A DNA stretch of 13,593 bases from Hormoscilla sp. (lineage in GTDB: Bacteria > Cyanobacteriota > Cyanobacteriia > Cyanobacteriales > Desertifilaceae), in contig JBFRWI010000123.1 of assembly GCA_051439505.1 (NCBI GenBank), positions 1 through 13,593 on the forward strand, given 5' to 3'. Positions 1,444 through 13,593 of the stretch are shown here, in pieces. The translations under genes and the position numbers were made by a program. Numbering within the stretch: the first letter of the stretch is position 1; every line of letters begins with the position of its first letter. Under the pieces are notes generated by a model. That model searched no databases and was not told the origin of the DNA. It saw only the letters and a program-made list of their open reading frames with translations.

Positions 1444-1557
1444 CTGGTTCCTAGGCTCAGCCTGGGAACCGTCTGTGGAGGATCTGCCTCCTGTTGGTTA
1501 GTCGCACTGGAGGCGGATCCTCAAAAGCATCATTCCCAGGTAGAACCTGCCAACGAG
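1444..1557. repeat. REP-like palindromic element, family B (CTCGTTCCCAGG...CCTGGGAACGAG / GAGGCAGAGCCTC type)
   Basis: Hairpin GGTTCCTAGGC-TCA-GCCTGGGAACC (1446-1470); inverted pair GAGGATCTGCCTCC (1478-1491) / GGAGGCGGATCCTC (1509-1522); degenerate hairpin 1531-1557. Relatives at 13137-13163 and 13215-13263. Confidence 0.75.
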
Positions 1558-1616
1558 ATCTATCCTACGATCCTACCTCTCCCTGGTTCGGTGGATCATC
1601 CTTTCTAGATAATGCT

Positions 1617-1673
1617 GGAGAGTCGGTTTTAACCCACTTGAGCTATTAGCCGGGGGTTTGAACCCCCGGCGGG
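1617..1673 (-). repeat. Double-hairpin REP/MITE-like element, family A, copy 1 (inverted relative to the other copies)
   Basis: AGTCGGTTTTAACCCACT-TGAGCTATTA-GCCGGGGGTTTGAACCCCCGGCGGG is the reverse complement of the copies at 6221-6418, 11110-11163 and 13112-13186. Confidence 0.85.
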
Positions 1674-1701
1674 TGAAAACAAAGACGATAAGGTAAAAAA
1701 G

Positions 1702-3636
1702 ATGAAATTTGAAGTTTGGGGATTGTCAAATATCCCACAGTCACAAGGTTCCTACTATCGCGTCTGGGTCGAGTCAAAAGCAACTTTGCAGGTGGAAGAC
1801 CCCGGGCAGTTCCAAGAACGCTGGGCGGTCAACGATACCCGCGAACTCCTTTACCTCCCGGAAAGTTTACCTTCTTTCCTGCGCTTTTGGACTTCAGATA
1901 ATGGTACTTTAGAACAATGTCTGATTCCCATTCAAGACCTGGAAGTGCAAACTAAAGGTATCATTTGGTTGCCCACTGCTAAGGTGCGCCCGGGTGCGGA
2001 TGTCCGAGGATTTGTCGTCCATCGCAACCTAACTCAGAATAGCCCGATCGCCCTTTCCCCGCAAGCTTTAACCCTCACCCTGCTTGACCCCAGCGGCACG
2101 GAACGCCGGGCGATCGCCATCCAGGGGGAAACCCTCCTGTCCCTGTTTAGCTTAGAAATCTCAGAACACGACCCCACGGGAACATGGAAATTTATCCTCG
2201 GGCAGGACGCAGAAACAGTTTACGAGACCAGTTTTGAGGTAGTGCGCTTCGAGAAACCGGAGATCGAAATTCAACAGCAAGTACCTAGCTGGTTCTTGCT
2301 TAATTCCCCGATCGCGTCATCTGTGAATCTGCGGTATTTCTTTGGGGAACCGGTGACCCAAGTCAAGCAAGCCAAATTCCGCTTGCACCGCCGAGAAGAA
2401 AGCGGCGAAAAAGTTTTCCTCGGGGAGATAGTCCGGGAAAATATCGAACTGACTGGGGGAAGTTACGAACTAAACCCGGACAGCAGCGCAGCGGGAAATT
2501 ATGAATGGGAACTGGAAATTGAAGACCCCCAATACCGCACGGCGAATGCCTGGGGGAATTATACTGTAGTTACCCAACCTTTGGCAATCTCCATCGGGAC
2601 TATCTCACCCCTTGACGACCTGAAACCAGAGGTTCCCATTGCCATTGAAATTAAACTGACCGACCCAGTGGGTGCCTCCTTGACAGGAGTGCCCATTGAG
2701 TGGAAAATTGTCGGTGACTCGGACTGTTACTCCTACTTGTACCCTCCGAATTTGGTAACCGATGCTAATGGTAAAGTGGTAGTCCACCTCCAGTTTCAGG
2801 ATATTGACGACCCCACCCAATTCCAGTTGCAAGCATCCGCAACGGTTGACGGAGTTAGTCAAACCCGAGAGCAAAAAATCCGCGTCATTCCTTGGATGTC
2901 TCGGGAGTCCTGGTTGGACGTTTCTCTGGATAAGTCCGCTTACCAACCCGGAGAAGCAGTGCAGGTGGATGTCCGGGTTAAGGGACGACCAAACCTCATC
3001 CAATCTCTGCACGTGGGGTCGGCGGAATTGATCGGCGATCGGGTGGCGCGATCGCTGGATTTCCAGTTGTCAGACGGTACGGGAAGCGTCACCTTTAAGC
3101 TACCCAAAACAGTGACATCGCCCCTGCAACTGCAAGTCAGCGTCTTGAAAGATTTCCCAGAATTTATCGATCGGAAGATTACCTTACCAGTTAAGATGGA
3201 AAGGACATCGGCCCTTTGGCAAGCAACTACGGCGGGAGACAAAGAAGTTGCCACCGGACAACCGTTGCAAGTAACCGTCAACTTTCCCCAACCCCTAACC
3301 CAGGATAGCAAAATCCTGGCCTGGTTGATCGATCGGCGCATTCCTCGGGCCAGCAAAGATGATATCTTGGGAACGGATCTGACCGCACCGGCAATTGAGA
3401 ATGAATTAAAACATTTTGCCCCCGTCCAGATCGAGGAATGGTCGAAAATTCAGCAAGAGACGCAGACTTTTGATGTAGAATTGAAATCCGGGGAGTGGCA
3501 TGGTTGGTCCTATCTGCATGGAAGCAACCAGGGAAGATTGATTGTGATGCGTGGGTCAGATCGCAACTGGTTCTCAGAGAAGGATGGATTCCTGCGGACA
3601 TTACTCTCTAGCAGCTATGAGATTAATGAAGTATAG
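1702..3636 (+). CDS. A2M N-terminal part (macroglobulin MG domains), 644 aa
   Basis: MG-type motifs: [17 protein letters not shown]...[47 protein letters not shown] upstream of the ATG. Confidence 0.85.
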
Positions 3637-3774
3637 GCAATTCTACAATATTTTCCACAAATCGCCGAATTTCAAATCTACAGTTGGGATAACAGTGCGG
3701 GAATACAACTGGAAACAAAATGGGCCAGGGGGAACGCCGAACCGTCAAACATTGAAAAGGAATTAAAATCCCAG

Positions 3775-6156
3775 TTGCCGAAGCTAGTTCAGGTGCCAGC
3801 GTCCCTGATGTATGAATTAGAAATGTTTCGTGGTGCCATGCCGCGCGGTGGTGGCGGTTGGCGAGGTGGTGGCGGAATGGTGATGATGGCGGCGGAACCA
3901 ATGACAAAAGGAGTGGGGTATTTCTTTGCAGATGATGATGAATTATACTCCGAAGAAGCTGCCCTGGATATAGAGTCACCATCAACTAAAACCCTTGTGG
4001 TCCGGGAAGACTTTATTGAGGTGGCATGTCACGAACCCATTGACATCAAAAAGGGTGCGACTTCCGCAACAGTGGAGTTTGCAGGCAGCGATGCCATTAC
4101 CGAGTACGATGTCGTAGTCTTTATCATTGGCGAAGATAATTTCGGTACCGCATCCCATCGCGTCATTGTCCGCAACCCCCTGTTTACCACGATCGCAAAT
4201 CCGCCGGAAATGATTTGGGGTGACAAAAGCACCCTGCGTACTATTGTCCAAAATATTTCCAGTCAAGAGTTTGACGAAATTATCCTCAAACTCCAGACGG
4301 AAAAAATTCGTACCGGACTGAAGCAACAGGCAATTACGGCCCTGGCACCCCAGGAAAGCGTCGCCGTCAACTGGCAAATTGAGGCAGTGGAAGTGGGGAA
4401 TGCCAAGGTATTGCTATCCTTAGAAACGAAAGGTTTTCGGGAAATATCCCAATTGGACACGCCCCTGCGAGTGCAACCCCCCGGAGAACCGGAAATTCAG
4501 CGCTATACGGCGACTTTGTCGGAGAAAAATCCAGTAGAATGGACCTTTGACTTGTCGGGAGAGGAAATCTTTACCTTGGGAATTATCTCCCTGATGCCCA
4601 ATGCCGAAGGGGCGGTAATTGAAGGGGTGGAATCTCTGGCCAGCTATCCCTATGGATGTTGTGAACAGACCTATGCTACCACCTTGCCCAATTTCATTCT
4701 CTACAAGTACCTGGAACGCCAGGATAAACTCACCCCCAAGTATGCCCAGAAGCTGAAAAAGAATATGCTGGCAGGACGCGATCGCTACCTGACGGTCTTC
4801 CGAAATCCCGAGACGGGGGGGTTTGGTTTGTGGGATGGCAAGGAAACATCGGTGTTTCACACGGCCTTGGCCTTCAGCATCTTGGCACTGATGAAGCAAG
4901 TTATCGATACCGAACAGCAAATCTTGGATGGTGCCATGAAATACTTGCTGGATTATCGCACGGCGGCGGGCAGTTGGGAACCGGCAAAAAGCCTGGAAAC
5001 TCCCTTTCCTTCCACCCTTTCGGAAGCGGGTAACACCGCCTTCATCTTTCACAGTGCCGCTTTAGGGAACATTCCCTTGCCCGAGACCTTAAACTGGTTG
5101 AAGCAAAACCTCAATTCTTACCAAGATGACGAAACTTGCTTGGCCTTGCTATTAGACGCCTTGACCCGCCTTGAGGAGTATCAACAAGCAGAAGGGACTC
5201 TAATCAAGCAACTCCGGGACATCCTCCTCAAGCAGCAAAAGTCAAATGGTAACTGGACTGGCAAAAGCAGTCTCACGGGGGACATTGAAACTACTGCCTA
5301 TTGCATGATGGCATTGGGTCGCGCCTTCGGCGCCGATCCTCGGGTGAGAAAGGCCATCAAAAAGGGATTGGATTATCTCTTGGCCAACCGACGTTCCACC
5401 GGTTGGTATTCGACTCGCGATACCCTCTATGCTTCCTGGGCGATCGGGGAAGTAGGGCACTTAGCTTGGACAGTATCGGACGTGAAGGGTACAGTCAACA
5501 TTGCCGTAAACGAAACCGAACAGGACATGTTGTCGAGTTTGCGGAAAATTGCCGGTCTCGAAGCCGCAAACCAAGCTCATAATTTTCACAAGACCTTTGA
5601 CTTTTCCCAAGCAAGGGGCACGGAACAGCTAGATTTAGTCTATCAGGCCCGCCGCATTTATATCGAGCAATTCCAACCGGGTCCGAATAAAATCTCCTTG
5701 AAGGCGGCAAAAGGATTTAACGCCCATGTTTTGATCGAACTCCATGTCTACCGTCAAGCTTCCTCACCAGAGGCACGGACGAATCAAATCGGAAATCTCC
5801 AGGTACAATGGTCTCAGCAGGAGTTCTCCCTAGGGGAACATACAGACTTGACCGTGCAGTTCGCACCCAGTCAAAAGTTGGAAGCGCTGCTAATGGAAAT
5901 TCCCATTCCCGCAGGAATAACTTTCGATCTGGCCCTTCGAGACGAGATGGCAGTGCCCAAGCAGTTCGATCATGTCGAGGTTAACCAGAACAAAGTGGCC
6001 CTGTTTGCCTCCAACTTGGACGCAGCGGTAGAAATAAAGGCCCGGTTCCACGGTGAGTTTCCCGGTGAGGTGCAGGTGAACCCCATCCGCGTTTATCAAA
6101 TGTATAAACCGGATGCGATCGTCCTTAGTCCCTGTACCAAACTCGTTGTTAATTAA
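3775..6156 (+). CDS. A2M C-terminal part (bait end, MG7, CUB-like, thioester domain, terminal MG domain); independent start doubtful
   Basis: VREDF...SDAITEY after the bait; thioester YPYGCCEQT (CCEQ 4657-4668); helical-barrel motifs [27 protein letters not shown]-terminal EIPIPAG and YQMYKP. Confidence 0.88.
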
Positions 6157-6220
6157 ATCGGAGGCATTCCCGATCGCCCGCCCGATCGCCCGCCGAGAGG
6201 TTTTCTCGTTTTCCCGATGG

Positions 6221-6418
6221 CCCGCCGGGGGTTCAAAGATGCTGTGGGCGAATTACCAATTTCTCGGCGTCTGAGGGGGTGAGGGAGGGAGGGGGGGAGG
6301 GGGGGGAAAGTCAAGCGCCATCAGCTTTTGAGGGTGGTAAGGGGTCATGCCCCCCAGTTAATTGCCCCACAGTATCTTCAAACCCCCGGCTAATAGCTAA
6401 AGTCGGTTAAAACCGACT
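6221..6418 (+). repeat. Family A element, copy 2, interrupted by a MITE
   Basis: CCCGCCGGGGGTTCAAA [insert] TTCAAACCCCCGGCTAATAGCTAAAGTCGGTTAAAACCGACT. Removing the insert and one TTCAAA restores the consensus. Confidence 0.85.
6238..6376. mobile_element. 139-bp non-autonomous MITE, 18-bp imperfect TIRs, 6-bp target-site duplication
   Basis: Left end GATGCTGTGGGCGAATTA (6238-6255); right end reverse complement GATACTGTGGGGCAATTA (6359-6376), 15/18 identical. TTCAAA at 6232-6237 and 6377-6382. Confidence 0.85.
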
Positions 6419-6429
6419 AAAAAATATTA

Positions 6430-6530
6430 GCGTTGCACAATTACAAGATGATCGAATATTTGCGCAAGTCTTAAACTTCGACTACAAGTCATTTTTAGTT
6501 GCCAAAAATTGTATCATCCCTGTGCAACGC
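6430..6530. mobile_element. ~100-bp MITE-like element with GCGTTGCACA termini
   Basis: Perfect 10-bp inverted repeat GCGTTGCACA (6430-6439) / TGTGCAACGC (6521-6530), each followed inward by GATGAT. AT-rich interior; no clear target duplication. Confidence 0.6.
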
Positions 6531-6533
6531 CCA

Positions 6534-6552
6534 TTGCTTCCCCATTGTTAAT
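6534..6552 (+). repeat. 19-bp direct repeat, left copy (TTGCTTCCCCATTGTTAAT)
   Basis: Exact match to 8700-8718. Confidence 0.9.
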
Positions 6553-6561
6553 TGAAAAGCC

Positions 6562-7185
6562 ATGACAGCACATGCGATCGCAGTTTCTCCAAATAGCACC
6601 GATAGAGAACAATATTTTGCTTTACCCGGATGTTACAATTGGCAACAATTTAAAACACTGACAAATTCCCTGGGAGAGAATAGTAACCTGAAAATATCTT
6701 ATCTGGATGGCAAAATAGAACTCATGACAACAGGAGAAAAACACGAAACTATCAGCCGTTTAATTTCCCTGTTACTGGGACTATACTTCTGGCAGATGAA
6801 AATAGAGTTTATTCCCGTGGGCAGTGCCACCCGCGAATCTGAAGAAAAAGAGGTTTCTTTTGCACCCGATGAATCTTATTATATTGGCAGGCAAAAAGAA
6901 CATCCAGATCTGGCGATCGAGGTCATTATTACCAGTGGGAATGTGAACAAACTCGAAAAATATAAACGCTTGCAAGTTCGAGAGGTGTGGTTCTGGAAAC
7001 AAGAGAAAATTTCAGTTTATGTATTGCAGAATGCAGAAACTGAAGATAAAATCGCGTATGAACTCAAAAAGAAAAGTGAATTATTGCCCGACTTGGACTT
7101 AGAAATGTTAGTTAATTGCGTGTTAATGCCGTCCAAAGTAGAAGCGATGAACGAGTTTTTGACAAATATCCAAGCAACACCGTAG
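6562..7185 (+). CDS. Uma2 (DUF820) family putative PD-(D/E)xK endonuclease, 207 aa
   Basis: YLDGKIELM...HE, PDESYYIG, PDLAIEVIITSG, KLEKY...VREVWFW, SELLPDLDL are typical of cyanobacterial Uma2 paralogues. Confidence 0.93.
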   Translation: MTAHAIAVSPNSTDREQYFALPGCYNWQQFKTLTNSLGENSNLKISYLDGKIELMTTGEKHETISRLISLLLGLYFWQMKIEFIPVGSATRESEEKEVSFAPDESYYIGRQKEHPDLAIEVIITSGNVNKLEKYKRLQVREVWFWKQEKISVYVLQNAETEDKIAYELKKKSELLPDLDLEMLVNCVLMPSKVEAMNEFLTNIQATP

Positions 7186-7297
7186 GTTGGGTAGAGGCAC
7201 GAAACCCAACCGAAAGCTGCGGTAGAGGCACGAAACCCAACCGAAAGCAAATGTTATGGTTGTGCAGTTTGGGTTTCCTAATGTCAACCCAAGCTAC
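7182..7297. repeat. GTAG-type REP doublet (family C) with an internal 28-bp duplication
   Basis: GTAGGTTGGGTAGAGGCACGAAACCCAAC from 7182; inverted partner ends CTAC at 7294-7297. GGTAGAGGCACGAAACCCAACCGAAAGC occurs at 7190-7217 and 7221-7248. Confidence 0.8.
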
Positions 7298-7349
7298 GAA
7301 GAACTAACTACCGGTGGAACCCACGGGAGAAAAAATTTACAAATAAATG

Positions 7350-7378
7350 TTGCAATTGCGCCGAGCTTTGGGTATGAT
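7350..7378 (+). promoter_or_regulatory. Sigma70-type promoter of the 412-aa gene
   Basis: TTGCAA (7350-7355), 17-bp spacer, TATGAT (7373-7378); 55 bp upstream of the ATG at 7434. Confidence 0.65.
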
Positions 7379-7433
7379 AGATAAAGGGGGACTTTGATTC
7401 CTGACGACTTAATTTATTGTATTTAAATTCAGC

Positions 7434-8672
7434 ATGTTCTCGATTCCTCTAATTCCATCGCAGCCACCTCCGATCGCCCTTGATATCTCCCAGGCGATCG
7501 CCCAAGTGGACGTTTTCGACCCTCAAATTTATCGGGGGGGAAAAACCGTCATCTATCCCGAATTTGTCCTGTCTACCCACAGCCTCTCTTTCGACGGACT
7601 GAAGACGCGACCCACCAACCGGATGGGCGATCCGTTTAATATCTCATTTTATGATTGGAATTCGGATGGCAAAAAAGCGATCGTAACCGTCCAAGTGACG
7701 CCGACTCAATATCACAATCAACATCCGAAATTTGCGATCGATGGTGGGGGACGTGCCTACCAACTTTCTCCCACCCCGGATTACGTGAAAGTGGATGGAA
7801 CATCGGTCATGAGTTCCGTACCTTTGAACTGGTACGGAAAGGGGCCGGTTGTGGCCTTGGGGTTGCGATCACGCACATTCATGATTCCCCTACTTCCCAA
7901 AACTAACTATCGCCAATCTATCGAGGAAATTGAGAAGCTGGGGGGTAAAGTTTTGGGCTTTTTGGGGACGGCGTTCAAAGGATTTGAGGCCAAAACCAAT
8001 CGACCCATGCCTTTATATTATACTTATCTCAATTTGAATAATTACCAGGGGTTGAATGGGGAAAAGGAAAAATATCCCGTGTATCGCAGTTCTGAAATCG
8101 CCGGACAAAGCGCCCCCAATATCCTGTTATCCGGGATCGTCACCTATCGGGACGGACATACGGAATATTTGGATTTTTCTCATCTGAAAGGGACGGGAAA
8201 CACGCCTGACGAACGGTTGGAAAGTATCAAAAAACAGATGCGCAAACATTTGGAAAAATTGGAGGGCGATCGGGATGTGGTGCAACTGACGATCGACACC
8301 CACGGCGTGATTCGTAAACCGGCAGATATCGCCGCCGTCTTCACCCGAGGGGGCGGGAAACGGGGCGGGCTGTTTTTGTTTTATGAAACGCAATCTGTGG
8401 GGCGGGCGGCGCGAGTTTTTAACAACAAAACTAAGGAATTTTTGGCTTCGATTATTACGCCTTCTCTGAAGATGGAAGATGTGTTGACAGTGGCGAAACG
8501 GCTGTATGGGGAAAATGCGGTCGTGCAATTTTTGGATGGAGATACGGCGGCGGCGGCACAATTTACCAGGGAAGATCCTACGAAAAAACTGCATATTTTG
8601 GACGATCGCGTTGTCAATGAGCATCGTTTCGGCCAGGTTCAGGGATTGCAATTGATCGTTTATTTTCCCTAA
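7434..8672 (+). CDS. Hypothetical protein, 412 aa, possibly a divergent phosphodiester glycosidase (NAGPA-like) fold
   Basis: Long ORF with its own promoter. The C-terminal GRAARVF...LKMEDVLTVAKRLYGENAVVQFLDGD loosely resembles NAGPA PRTAIG...LTLxELAxxLxxLG...NLDGGGS. The CDS is solid; the function is tentative. Confidence 0.8.
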   Translation: MFSIPLIPSQPPPIALDISQAIAQVDVFDPQIYRGGKTVIYPEFVLSTHSLSFDGLKTRPTNRMGDPFNISFYDWNSDGKKAIVTVQVTPTQYHNQHPKFAIDGGGRAYQLSPTPDYVKVDGTSVMSSVPLNWYGKGPVVALGLRSRTFMIPLLPKTNYRQSIEEIEKLGGKVLGFLGTAFKGFEAKTNRPMPLYYTYLNLNNYQGLNGEKEKYPVYRSSEIAGQSAPNILLSGIVTYRDGHTEYLDFSHLKGTGNTPDERLESIKKQMRKHLEKLEGDRDVVQLTIDTHGVIRKPADIAAVFTRGGGKRGGLFLFYETQSVGRAARVFNNKTKEFLASIITPSLKMEDVLTVAKRLYGENAVVQFLDGDTAAAAQFTREDPTKKLHILDDRVVNEHRFGQVQGLQLIVYFP

Positions 8673-8699
8673 AGCCCGCCTGAATTAAGAATAATACTC

Positions 8700-8718
8700 T
8701 TGCTTCCCCATTGTTAAT
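8700..8718 (+). repeat. 19-bp direct repeat, right copy
   Basis: Exact match to 6534-6552. Confidence 0.9.
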
Positions 8719-8797
8719 AGATTTTTGCTGTGGAACGATTAGGCAATGCGATCGGGATATCGTTCCAGCCGATCGCCCAAATCAGTTGTAAAAATTG

Positions 8798-8820
8798 AGA
8801 AACCCGGTTTCCGGGTTTCT
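8798..8820. terminator. Hairpin between convergent genes (possible terminator or AGAAACCCGGTTTC-type repeat)
   Basis: Perfect 10-bp stem AGAAACCCGG-TTT-CCGGGTTTCT, 40 bp past the phoX stop. No strong U-tract. Confidence 0.5.
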
Positions 8821-8860
8821 GGGCATCTTTTAGTTCGCCAATGGTGGGACAGGCGGAACC

Positions 8861-11038
8861 CTACAAGCGATGAATGGCGACAACGGCGGGTTTGGGCGGG
8901 TCGTTCGGTCCCTTACCGGGCCAGTTGGAACCGATCGGCACTTTCCGTTCTTGGATGAATTCCTGACCGTCGGGTAGTCTCATGGCAAATTGACGGACTT
9001 CTGCGGCCCCATTGCGACGCTGGCCATTCCTTTCCCCCGGATGCTGGAAAGCTAAGAATAATGTTTGTTGATCGGGGGTGAAGCATGGTCCGCAGGTTTC
9101 TGTCTCCATGGGCCCGATCGCGAAAGGATAAGCTTGGCCTGCATCAGGACCGGAGGTGGGAATAAACCAGGTGGTATTGTTGCCAAATACCCCCAGGACT
9201 TCATATTGGTTGACAGGGGTACCGTCAGGTTTCACTCGACTGGGCAGGGGTATGTTCTGACTGCCAGTACCGATGTCCGTTACCATCCAGATATTGCCAT
9301 CGCGATCGATCTCCAGGTTGTCGGGATTGGAAAAACCCAGACCGCCGTCCGCTGGTTCCCCCCCCATCGCTAGCATTTCCCAACGGAAAGTCATGGCAGA
9401 GGGTTCTAACCCATCTTCGGTCAGCCGCATTATCCAGCCATACTCGTAGGGAGACTCGCCGTTGGGTCCGATGAAGATATCCTTGTCAGGACCGCCACTA
9501 CGACTGGGACTCCCGGAGGTAAAGGCAATGTAAAGAGTGCCGTCCCTGGCAACATCGGTGTCTTCGGGACGGGCGGTGCAGGTGATCCCCGCCGCATTGG
9601 CAGCATAATGGGCATCAATCAGAATTGCTCCTTGTTTTTCTGTATAGTTGCCAAGGTAGAGATCCCCCAAGGTTTTAAATTGCTTGCCAAAGGCGATCGC
9701 CTGGGCATCGTTGTTCATCTTGACTAGGCCCCCTGCTGCCCGATCGGGGTTAGGCATAATGACATTGTTACCCAACACTTGACTGGGCAATACTGGATGT
9801 ACGGGAGTATTGGGGTTGAGGGCTATCCAACGACCCGTACCATCGGCATAGAACTTGGCACCATAAAGCATTCCCTCTGTCATCAGTTTACTGTTGGCCT
9901 TGTCTTGGGGGTGGCTGACAGAGTCTTTGCTGAGAAACTTGTAGAGATGTCCCCCCCGCCGATCGCATCCGGAATATACAGCTAGTTGCTTGCCAGATAC
10001 TGCCCTGACTGCTACGGCTTCGTGACGGAAACGTCCCAACCAGGTATGCTTGGTGCCATAATCATTGGGGTTGGCCGGATCTACTTCTACCATCCAACCA
10101 TACTTGTTCCCCGCCAGACCGAAAACATTCCCCTGACCTGCGATAAATCGATTATCTATATAGAAGCTATTCCGTGCGGGGTCCGCTGAGGAACCATCGG
10201 CCAACACTGGTTCGCTTACTTGGGCCTGGAAGTTTTCCTCTGCACTCAGAACTGTCCCCCAAGGGGTGGTTCCCCCAGCACAGTTGGCAAAGGTGCCGAT
10301 GATGCGTACACCTAACCCGTCCTCGTAACCTCTCTTCTGCTTTTTCTCGAACACGGCCACGGCGGGGCCTGTAGCTTTTAGGTAGCGTCCGTCTTGCCAA
10401 CCGGAGATACCTGTTATCCGGCGATCGGCCTTGGAAAAGGTGCGCGTCCATTTGCCATCGGAGTTGCGGGCCAGGGAAATTACCCCTATTCCCTGGTCTA
10501 TTAAACATTCCTGACAGATTTCCCGGATTTGAGCTTTCAAGGGGTTATCCTCGGATAGGGTTAAGGCATCGATCGGGCCTTGGGTGGCCGCGATCACTTC
10601 CTGAAAGGGTAGCGATCGCCCGATCGCCCCTCTGTAGGTCTGCATCCAGGTAAAGCCGCTGATATACTCGAAGTTGATCGTCAAGTATCCTCGATCGATG
10701 CCTGTTTTCACGAAGGATAGATAATCGTTGTTATAGCCGCAGCGTCCGTCACCTATCTTGTCCCCCCAGGCTGCGATCGGGTCATAGGTGAACCCTTCTG
10801 GCAGTACAATATCATCGACAACTTCGTAGCTGCTATAGGCGAGGATTTGCGCTGACGCTGGCTGGTCGTCTATCTCTAGGGGAATCGGCAGTTTAATGGG
10901 TTTAAAGCTCATGCCGGAGTTACCCTGGTTAAAAGGCATGGATAATTTCTGTCCCTGGTCCTTGCCGCAGGCCCCAAGGGCAATGGTGGCAGCGCCTGCA
11001 CCGAGGAACATTAAGAACTCTCTGCGTTTGACATTCAT
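8861..11038 (-). CDS. phoX: PhoX-family alkaline phosphatase (DUF839), Tat-exported probable lipoprotein, 725 aa
   Basis: MNVKRREFL twin-arginine motif, hydrophobic stretch, LGAC lipobox. PhoX motifs GYNND, NFEY, GTFANCAGGTTPWGTVLSAEEN, LGRFRHE, RPED, NPDNL, ETCGP, QHPGE. ATG 11038 preferred to GTG 11098. Confidence 0.95.
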   Translation of the reverse strand: MNVKRREFLMFLGAGAATIALGACGKDQGQKLSMPFNQGNSGMSFKPIKLPIPLEIDDQPASAQILAYSSYEVVDDIVLPEGFTYDPIAAWGDKIGDGRCGYNNDYLSFVKTGIDRGYLTINFEYISGFTWMQTYRGAIGRSLPFQEVIAATQGPIDALTLSEDNPLKAQIREICQECLIDQGIGVISLARNSDGKWTRTFSKADRRITGISGWQDGRYLKATGPAVAVFEKKQKRGYEDGLGVRIIGTFANCAGGTTPWGTVLSAEENFQAQVSEPVLADGSSADPARNSFYIDNRFIAGQGNVFGLAGNKYGWMVEVDPANPNDYGTKHTWLGRFRHEAVAVRAVSGKQLAVYSGCDRRGGHLYKFLSKDSVSHPQDKANSKLMTEGMLYGAKFYADGTGRWIALNPNTPVHPVLPSQVLGNNVIMPNPDRAAGGLVKMNNDAQAIAFGKQFKTLGDLYLGNYTEKQGAILIDAHYAANAAGITCTARPEDTDVARDGTLYIAFTSGSPSRSGGPDKDIFIGPNGESPYEYGWIMRLTEDGLEPSAMTFRWEMLAMGGEPADGGLGFSNPDNLEIDRDGNIWMVTDIGTGSQNIPLPSRVKPDGTPVNQYEVLGVFGNNTTWFIPTSGPDAGQAYPFAIGPMETETCGPCFTPDQQTLFLAFQHPGERNGQRRNGAAEVRQFAMRLPDGQEFIQERKVPIGSNWPGKGPNDPPKPAVVAIHRL

Positions 11039-13111: not shown

Positions 13112-13186
13112 GCCCGCCGGGGGTTCAAACCCCCGGCGTTACCAGGCAGAGCCAGGTAACGAGGCTTAAGTGGGTTAAAACCCACT
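13112..13186 (+). repeat. Family A element, copy 4, with a family B hairpin between its two stems
   Basis: CCCGCCGGGGGTTCAAACCCCCGGC + GTTACCAGGCAGAGCCAGGTAACGAG + GCTTAAGTGGGTTAAAACCCACT. Confidence 0.8.
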
Positions 13187-13214
13187 CTCTACATTGTCTA
13201 TAAAGCGTTTTCCC

Positions 13215-13263
13215 CTCGTTCCCTGGCGGAGCCAGGGAACGAGTTATAGAGGCTCTGCCTCTA
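13215..13263. repeat. Family B REP-like hairpins
   Basis: Perfect 13-bp stem CTCGTTCCCTGGC-GGA-GCCAGGGAACGAG (13215-13243) and TAGAGGC-TCT-GCCTCTA (13247-13263). Confidence 0.8.
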
Positions 13264-13310
13264 GTTGACAATGGTGCAAGATATGAACCGATGCACAGTA
13301 AGAGAATTTG

Positions 13311-13341
13311 TGCTAGAATAGGTGTGTTAGGAATTTGGAGG
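13311..13341 (+). promoter_or_regulatory. Extended -10 element and ribosome-binding site of the last gene
   Basis: TG-C-TAGAAT (13311-13319); GGAGG (13337-13341) upstream of the ATG at 13353. Confidence 0.55.
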
Positions 13342-13352
13342 AATAATAGAAA

Positions 13353-13589
13353 ATGTCGGATTTGCAAGCAGTAAGAAAACAAATATATAAGTTATCGGTG
13401 CTGGAACGGTTGGAGTTGCTAGAGGCGATCGCCCAGTCTCTGCAATCAGAACTCAGACCCCGTCCAAAATTGCCCGAAAATTTCCTCATGGAGATGCGGG
13501 GGTTGGGGAAAACTGATAATCCTCCTCCAACTGATGCAGAAGTGTCAGCGATGAAGGAAGAACGTTTAGTGGAGAAATACCTGAAATGA
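13353..13589 (+). CDS. Small hypothetical protein, probable antitoxin, 78 aa
   Basis: RBS present. LSVLERLELLEAIAQSL helix and PPTDAEV...EERLVEKY tail resemble small cyanobacterial proteins that precede PIN toxins. The stop overlaps the next start (ATGA, 13586-13589). Confidence 0.7.
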   Translation: MSDLQAVRKQIYKLSVLERLELLEAIAQSLQSELRPRPKLPENFLMEMRGLGKTDNPPPTDAEVSAMKEERLVEKYLK

Positions 13590-13593
13590 GATT

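Follow-up and report, generated by a model that had tools for sequence, protein, structure and literature searches.

A single thioester-protein gene interrupted by an in-frame stop codon

We analyzed a 13,593-nucleotide stretch of Hormoscilla sp. DNA (referred to below as the window), which is the entire contig C123 (GenBank JBFRWI010000123.1) of a 6.47-Mb draft genome in 232 contigs. Positions 1702 to 6156 of its forward strand hold one gene of the alpha-2-macroglobulin (A2M)/thioester-protein type, whose product has 1,484 residues when an in-frame TAG is read through as X. Two open reading frames (ORFs), 1702-3636 (644 amino acids [aa]) and 3637-6156, share this frame, and the TAG at 3634-3636 is all that separates them. 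The second ORF is listed from a TTG at 3775, while the stop-to-stop reading begins at 3637, directly after the TAG. The gene is the only match in this genome to the thioester domain (TED) and A2M families. Its features, which include macroglobulin (MG) domains, are the following.

1639..1641, + strand: in-frame TGA, 20 codons 5' of the start, which bars a longer N terminus
1702..3633, + strand: N-terminal 644 codons, MG-domain array, with the leaderless start MKFEVWGL at 1702
1987..2241 (aa 96-180), + strand: Pfam MG2, 35.2 bits against a cut-off of 32.8
3634..3636, + strand: in-frame TAG, codon 645, with A (TAG) or C (TCG, Ser) at the polymorphic base 3635
3637..6156, + strand: C-terminal 839 codons and stop in the same frame, with a bait-like region, MG7 (A2M), CUB/TED, and a C-terminal MG domain
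3784..3996 (about aa 695-765), + strand: hypervariable Met/Gly/Pro/Arg-rich, then acidic stretch, the predicted bait, delimited by column conservation
4033..4269 (aa 778-856), + strand: Pfam A2M (MG7), PF00207, E value of 6.4e-7
4612..4992 (aa 971-1097), + strand: Pfam TED_complement, PF07678, matched part, E value of 1.6e-22
4654..4668 (aa 985-989), + strand: thioester motif GCCEQ, invariant in 26 of 26 aligned sequences
5800..6114 (aa 1367-1471), + strand: Pfam bMG10, C-terminal macroglobulin domain, 27.9 bits against a cut-off of 26.2

All four Pfam domains (MG2, A2M, TED, and bMG10) exceed their cut-offs. An earlier note on this DNA had claimed a full thioester domain, and the TED match together with the invariant GCCEQ bears this out. 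Alignments to the insect thioester-containing protein (TEP) TEP1 and to the protein P0035 span the whole TED, the hhalign alignment to P0035 covering aa 766-1472 with a probability of 98.5%. The context of the motif, Y982-P-Y-G-C-C-E-Q989, is identical throughout the clade alignment, which comprises 26 sequences (the window protein and 25 homologues). Conserved cysteines are few in the clade: C73, C986, C987, C1146, and C1201. In the N-terminal half, language-model features match A2M N-terminal clusters at 0.91 to 0.93, and TEP1 and cobra venom factor align within aa 121-437. The bacterial domain models bMG3, bMG5, and bMG6 gave no Pfam match in the protein, and no NCBIfam model matched it.

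The gene belongs to a rare clade of cyanobacterial A2Ms

Homologues were sought in a collection of 5.8 billion proteins, of which 8,000 candidates were scored and 50 were returned. A tight group of 27 of these 50 proteins shows 55 to 91% identity, and with the next matches identity drops to 21 to 27%. The N-terminal 640 residues used alone as a query retrieved the same 27 proteins only. Full-length members are 1458 to 1518 aa long and, where named, come from filamentous or pleurocapsalean cyanobacteria.

We then looked at the distribution of the gene in genomes. The N-terminal half found a match in 1 of the 401 genomes of a sample of the phylum, namely the window genome itself, and in 10 of the 401 genomes of a sample of the order, representing 5 of 142 genera. 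These 10 consist of five intact frames (1494 to 1551 codons), four genomes of the window's genus (its own included), and one 74-aa remnant. Pattern scans recovered nine clade loci at one genome per species, to which metagenome contigs added four clade loci and two outliers. A plasmid collection yielded no clade member; the six records that matched were all at most 26% identical. In full-text searches we found no literature on A2Ms that are leaderless or come from cyanobacteria; the mention of A2M in PMC12839542 concerns a beta-sandwich resemblance only. The family is a rare leaderless, stand-alone, thioester-bearing A2M variant, undescribed in the literature that we found.

The leaderless start is conserved throughout the clade

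The non-hydrophobic start MKFE..SYYRVW is conserved in 24 of the 25 aligned homologues. It forms the exact first residues of 22 of them and in 2 stands behind a short extension that the annotator called and that is no signal; the last one is N-terminally truncated. Residues M1-F3-G7-L8...S17-Y18-Y19-R20 are at least 90% conserved in the 26-sequence alignment. As a measure of hydrophobicity, we took the highest Kyte-Doolittle mean over 10 residues within the first 45 aa. This maximum was 0.46 in the window protein and did not exceed 1.13 in the clade, except for the annotator-called extension of P0025 (1.94). By the same measure, 18 of 23 distant A2M matches reached at least 2.2, many of them with plain signal or lipobox sequences. 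Furthermore, in all seven loci compared, an in-frame stop lies 3 to 31 codons 5' of the conserved start.

Along its entire length the protein showed no membrane-spanning segment, its C terminus has no hydrophobic anchor, and in 25 of the 26 sequences the most hydrophobic 19-residue stretch is the conserved TED helix. The clade profile aligns aa 121-338 with residues 135-349 of the TEP1 chain and aa 152-437 with residues 165-455 of cobra venom factor. Since these offsets are only 13 to 18 residues, MG1 would begin at about residue 1. The lack of a leader thus characterizes the whole clade and is not due to a local 5' truncation. The earlier note had described an N terminus without a hydrophobic core and without room for a longer start. 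Both observations hold, the first of them across the clade and the second because of the TGA at 1639-1641. The note had also named what would overturn its reading, that close homologues carry signal peptides and this copy is just 5' truncated; what we found instead is a start shared by the entire clade.

A hypervariable stretch occupies the position of the bait

Column conservation lies between 0.6 and 0.96 along the protein and dips at aa 691-750 (0.36 and 0.29) and at aa 1261-1290 (0.36). The stretch at aa 695-765 is very variable in length and directly precedes the conserved VVREDFIEV motif, which is followed by the A2M domain. All 26 clade sequences have a low-complexity stretch at this position. 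Because it occupies the place where A2Ms carry their bait, immediately before MG7, and because it is hypervariable, we take this stretch to be the putative bait region.

Relationship to known A2Ms and TEPs

Bacterial A2Ms are divided into type I and type II in PMC5764988. According to this paper, type I (YfhM/ECAM) is periplasmic, whereas type II lacks the thioester, has a signal peptide, and belongs to a six-gene operon; the signal of MagD has 21 residues. Like the type I proteins (YfhM/ECAM and Sa-A2M), the window clade comprises large multi-MG proteins with CxEQ in the TED, a C-terminal bMG10-type domain, and a predicted bait before MG7. However, type I A2Ms are periplasmic lipoproteins encoded beside pbpC, and the window clade has neither signal nor lipobox nor a pbpC neighbor. 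With type II A2Ms (MagD/YfaS) and with the conventional A2Ms of cyanobacteria it shares the superfamily and the A2M and MG2 domains. Unlike type II, it has CCEQ and lacks both a conserved operon and a signal.

The clade also resembles the animal TEPs (TEP1, human A2M, CD109, and complement C3/C4/C5), with which it shares a length of about 1,300 to 1,500 aa and a colinear order from MG2 to TED. These proteins are secreted with signal peptides and are rich in disulfides, whereas the proteins of the window clade are prokaryotic, lack a leader, and have few conserved cysteines and a C-terminal domain that matches the bacterial bMG10 model. When compared with solved structures, the clade profile matched insect TEP1 (E value of 4.9e-21), human A2M (7e-16), and CD109 (1.2e-15), while the matches to the chains of E. 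coli YfhM and Salmonella Sa-A2M were marginal (about 1e-4). By profile comparison, the clade is thus nearer to animal TEPs than to YfhM or the Salmonella A2M.

A conventional A2M gene of about 1,900 to 1,950 codons is present in 87 of 401 sampled cyanobacterial genomes, and no A2M of this type of about 1,900 aa was found in the window genome. All four conventional proteins that we examined (L066, L067, L069, and L070) have lipoprotein-type starts. There is no CxEQ anywhere in L066, L067, and L069, and L070 has CKEQ at residue 1548. The carriers of these four genes are of the same family and order as the window genome. In L066, the conventional A2M gene (2634-8354, - strand) adjoins a PBP1C-like gene (8683-10962, + strand). 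The link between A2M and pbpC was reportedly described by Budd et al. in 2004 (Genome Biology).

The intact protein is a predicted thioester trap

We read the locus as a single A2M/thioester-protein gene of a rare leaderless clade, cut by a young polymorphic stop codon, and the intact protein as a predicted bait-triggered thioester trap that likely acts inside the cell. For this reading as a whole, we regard the chances of being right and of being wrong as evenly balanced. Cleavage of the bait at aa 695-765, or some other disturbance, would expose the thioester between Cys986 and Gln989 and allow it to form a covalent bond with the attacker; this trapping would take place in the cytoplasm. Recombinant bacterial A2Ms form their thioester when produced in the cytoplasm of E. 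coli. The mechanism that we propose for the clade is the one given for type I A2Ms in PMC5764988. A cytoplasmic location combined with the trapping of proteases, including phage proteases, would be the best available reading of these sequences.

We considered whether the family could instead be exported without an N-terminal signal, through a type I-like C-terminal signal, in vesicles, or by the lysis of filament cells, and guard the periplasm, the sheath, or the mat against foreign proteases. Such a role would be in line with PMC5764988, according to which every characterized A2M or TEP works outside the cytoplasm, and with a clade profile that is closest to secreted animal TEPs. It would also suit the carriers, which, judged from record titles, are mat- and sheath-forming filamentous cyanobacteria. 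However, none of the 24 homologues that hold the N terminus has a hydrophobic or lipobox start, the C terminus offers no hydrophobic anchor, and no conserved transporter gene lies beside the A2M gene. Moreover, the phylum's conventional A2Ms have retained classical lipoprotein signals. We therefore consider export of the family unlikely.

Distant relatives are fused to Hsp70/DnaK

Relatives outside the clade bear on both the trigger and the location of an intracellular trap. With a hidden Markov model of the C-terminal part of the clade (aa 766 to the end), two metagenome contigs, L035 and L036, matched over the whole model (E values of 9e-136 and 7.6e-79), while the best other outgroup reached 4e-28. 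In a maximum-likelihood tree of 44 rows, several of which have long branches and an unusual composition, support was 99/96 for the clade, 100/99 for the clade with L035, and 100/100 when L036 was included. L036 is the closest out-of-clade relative with readable sequence 5' of the shared part. In its 5'-open frame (L036:2-2758, + strand), an Hsp70 module (Pfam positions 337-524; DnaK type by NCBIfam) is followed without a break by an A2M domain and a TED that contains YPYGCCEQT.

A similar arrangement was found within the same order, in a second leaderless family with CCEQ, present in 2 of the 401 genomes of the order sample. The gene L068:4791-9272 (- strand, genome G148) encodes a leaderless protein of 1,494 aa, in which CCEQ follows an A2M domain at the usual spacing. 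The related gene L100:3301-6855 (+ strand, genome G464) encodes a leaderless protein of 1,184 aa, and the two are 49 to 51% identical on both sides of a linker. In L100 this linker is bait-like and 57 aa long; in L068 its place, exactly before MG7, is taken by a DnaK ATPase domain that is complete (aa 503-890; E value of about 1e-151).

The Hsp70/DnaK-fused L036 and L068, and the unfused L100, share with the clade the distance that separates CCEQ from the preceding A2M domain. Additionally, L068 and L100 are leaderless like the clade, and L036 has the clade's YPYGCCEQ context and falls into one group with it. In L036 and L068 an Hsp70 module stands beside the bait region or replaces it, whereas in the window clade this position is a low-complexity stretch. 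A bacterial protein with an ATPase domain would be expected in the cytoplasm, and for the window clade this would hold by analogy only; the fusions hint at, and are consistent with, an ATP-containing compartment for the clade. Our searches of the A2M literature brought up no description of Hsp70/DnaK-fused A2Ms in print, although no search was aimed at such fusions.

The fused relatives also suggest that the protein could be intracellular and yet not trap proteases. The "bait" would then be a sensor or decoy surface, the thioester would tag the disturber in the manner of complement, and Hsp70/DnaK would serve in the relatives as a decoy or as a client-sensing unit. Both the exchange of an L100-type linker for the DnaK domain in L068 and the Hsp70 of L036, which is joined straight to MG7-TED in a protein that groups with the clade at 100/100, fit this idea, as does the bait stretch, where conservation within the clade is lowest. 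However, there are only two cases of fusion, one of them from a short metagenome contig, and none of the 26 window-clade sequences carries one, all being of low complexity at this place. We rate a sensor or decoy that traps no protease as distinctly improbable.

The stop codon is young and polymorphic, and the gene decays in its genus

The window gene is interrupted by the TAG at 3634-3636. The earlier note spoke of a "repaired gene" and so hinted at a break, but it left the interruption itself unstated. Base 3635 is A in the runs X3 (depth 195), X4 (3.5), and X1 (5; possibly the source of the window), and C in the run X2 (depth 137), which comes from another sample of the same study. Over positions 1500-6300, no other difference from the window was listed for X2. 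At the position of codon 645, Ser is found in 14 of the 25 homologues, among them P0003 (91% identical), and a stop in none. The TAG is a real, young, and still polymorphic TCG-to-TAG mutation. The gene in this genome is probably non-functional or split and would yield at best an N-terminal fragment of 644 aa.

We also compared the window genome with four other species genomes of the genus (G491, G544, G568, and G557). G491, to which the locus L008 is 100% identical over 7,301 bases, has two frameshifts, at about aa 49 and aa 1040. In G544, whose matching pieces are the same as those of L010, aa 1-138, 388-470, and 675-1484 remain in shifting frames, with deletions and frameshifts. The remnants in G568 and G557 correspond to aa 113-325 and aa 1439-1473, respectively. 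Damaged copies or remnants are thus present in all five species genomes, and the window copy is the least damaged. The dN/dS between the window gene and L008 is 0.33 (1,485 codons), compared to 0.22 for the neighboring methyltransferase, and purifying selection therefore acted until recently.

Other loci and libraries gave further observations on this gene. A 74-aa remnant of a clade gene (L097; G660:C14:13331-13588, - strand), equivalent to aa 571-644 and 54% identical, was found in another family of the order and therefore points to loss beyond the window's genus, too. In L010, about 2.8 kb between the methyltransferase and the A2M remnant (6789-9603) is absent from the window and could be an inserted element. 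In a sediment metatranscriptome, X20, contigs are about 92 to 96% alike over window positions 1793-3227 and 4176-6204 and carry two compensating pairs of one-base indels (4260/4266 and 5196/5200). These contigs are a relative's copy in an RNA library and no proof of transcription. The runs X5-X19, whose word shares are small, served for no statement on habitat.

An intact, functional gene, with a TAG that arose as an error of sequencing or assembly or that undergoes readthrough, is very improbable. The X2 reading of TCG at depth 137, the otherwise open frame, and the dN/dS of 0.33 would agree with such an explanation. However, A is found at 3635 in contigs of three runs, including X3 at depth 195, and four other species of the genus have independent frameshifts, deletions, or remnants. 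There is no sign of TAG reassignment, Ser being the residue in 14 of the 25 homologues, and 1 of the 68 Uma2 matches in this genome also has an internal TAG, as in a broken gene. Least credible of all is a natural split gene, in which a C-terminal bait-TED fragment restarts at the TTG at 3775 or at a later ATG and accompanies the N-terminal MG array: an ORF 3775-6156 with a TTG start does exist, but no homologue is split here, full-length relatives being single frames of 1458 to 1518 aa (no search was aimed at shorter forms), and the intact Ser allele still circulates.

Genomic neighborhood

Two palindromic repeats, whose core is gccgggggtttgaacccccggc, flank the gene.

1625-1675, no strand assigned: short palindromic intergenic repeat, about 316 copies on 139 contigs
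6380-6425, no strand assigned: related repeat copy 3' of the gene, about 290 copies in the genome

The first of them is the repeat DNA that the earlier note had placed just upstream of the gene. One X2 contig skips positions 1559-1620, a 62-base insertion/deletion difference. No RNA family of Rfam was found in the window.

In a scan of 59 neighbor ORFs from six clade loci, only Uma2 and, in some loci, an ADP-ribosylglycohydrolase recurred, and there was no partner gene conserved across the six loci. Neither the window nor these 59 ORFs contained a Transgly, Transpeptidase, BiPBP_C, pbpC, or yfa-type gene, and no conserved transporter gene adjoined the A2M gene. The description of the gene as stand-alone, without a pbpC or yfa-type neighbor, was therefore correct. 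The neighbors in the window (methyltransferase, Uma2, a 412-aa ORF, PhoX, and DUF3352) recur in the same genus only, with the exception of a 36%-identical Uma2 match in L004. The 412-aa ORF (window 7434-8672, + strand) has no Pfam, NCBIfam, or PADLOC match and lies beside the A2M gene in none of 16 related loci.

We rejected the ADP-ribosylglycohydrolase as a partner, as it is confined to one lineage and the window genome has no copy. It lies directly upstream on the same strand in L005 (8936-9940), L006 (70-1068), and L033 (6844-7842), and these copies are 95 to 100% identical to one another and thus represent a single lineage. The one of L004 is only 24% identical and on the opposite strand.

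The earlier note had seen a defense or accessory region in the methyltransferase, the Uma2 gene, and a probable toxin-antitoxin pair. The Uma2 gene is real but says little, since the genome has 68 Uma2 matches. The supposed toxin-antitoxin pair could not be confirmed, as the small ORFs at the contig end (13353-13589, + strand, and 13125-13591, - strand) match no Pfam or PADLOC family. With PADLOC-DB 2.0, the only matches near the gene were Uma2 (PDC-S17) and the methyltransferase.

Evidence against an intracellular trap

Several results weigh against the reading of the gene as an intracellular thioester trap, or against parts of it. Neither half of the A2M protein has a family in PADLOC-DB 2.0, and the neighborhoods of the clade are not enriched in defense genes above the cyanobacterial background. 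With the 68 Uma2 matches and an unconfirmed toxin-antitoxin pair in addition, we rejected the defense island as unsupported. The Pfam bait-region domain A2M_BRD was not detected in the window protein, and hhalign on alignment slices found no internal MG repeats (best probability, 0.9%) and picked out none of MG1 and MG3 to MG6 individually. The N-terminal half probably has a six-MG architecture, as suggested by its length, the MG2 match, the PDB alignments, and the language-model features.

As for location, the absence of a signal was judged by the hydrophobicity measure described above, which is a simple one. A missing Sec, Tat, or lipobox signal may also leave room for non-classical export. 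The Hsp70-fused relatives are distant and may say nothing on where the window clade resides. With L036 the identity is 26%, and the Hsp70 in this protein could be of the endoplasmic reticulum type; L068 is remote from the window protein (BLASTP E value of 2e-5; hhalign probability of 9%). Finally, the gene is here a fresh nonsense allele and is being lost in the genus, and the read evidence for the break consists of assembled contigs, which represent majority alleles only. Overall, the interpretation given in the earlier note, that of a cytoplasmic protease trap, is partly supported.

Implications

To our knowledge, every A2M or complement-type thioester protein characterized so far has its site of action outside the cytoplasm. 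If our reading is correct, a conserved clade that retains the complete domain set and the thioester motif but lacks an export signal, and that has relatives in which this module is combined with an ATP-dependent Hsp70 domain, would move an ancient trap mechanism inside the cell, and it would be a concrete candidate for bacterial protease-sensing immunity or protein quality control. The pair of TCG and TAG alleles, together with the series of decaying copies across one genus, lends itself to studying at what point such a gene can be dispensed with. We further propose, tentatively and with low confidence, that there are, in filamentous cyanobacteria, two or more families of cytoplasmic thioester proteins that resemble complement; in these proteins, either a variable bait or an Hsp70/DnaK decoy or client sensor would trigger the covalent capture of an intruder, such as a phage protease. 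If true, A2M-based immunity would thereby operate inside cells, through a mechanism that has yet to be described in any organism.

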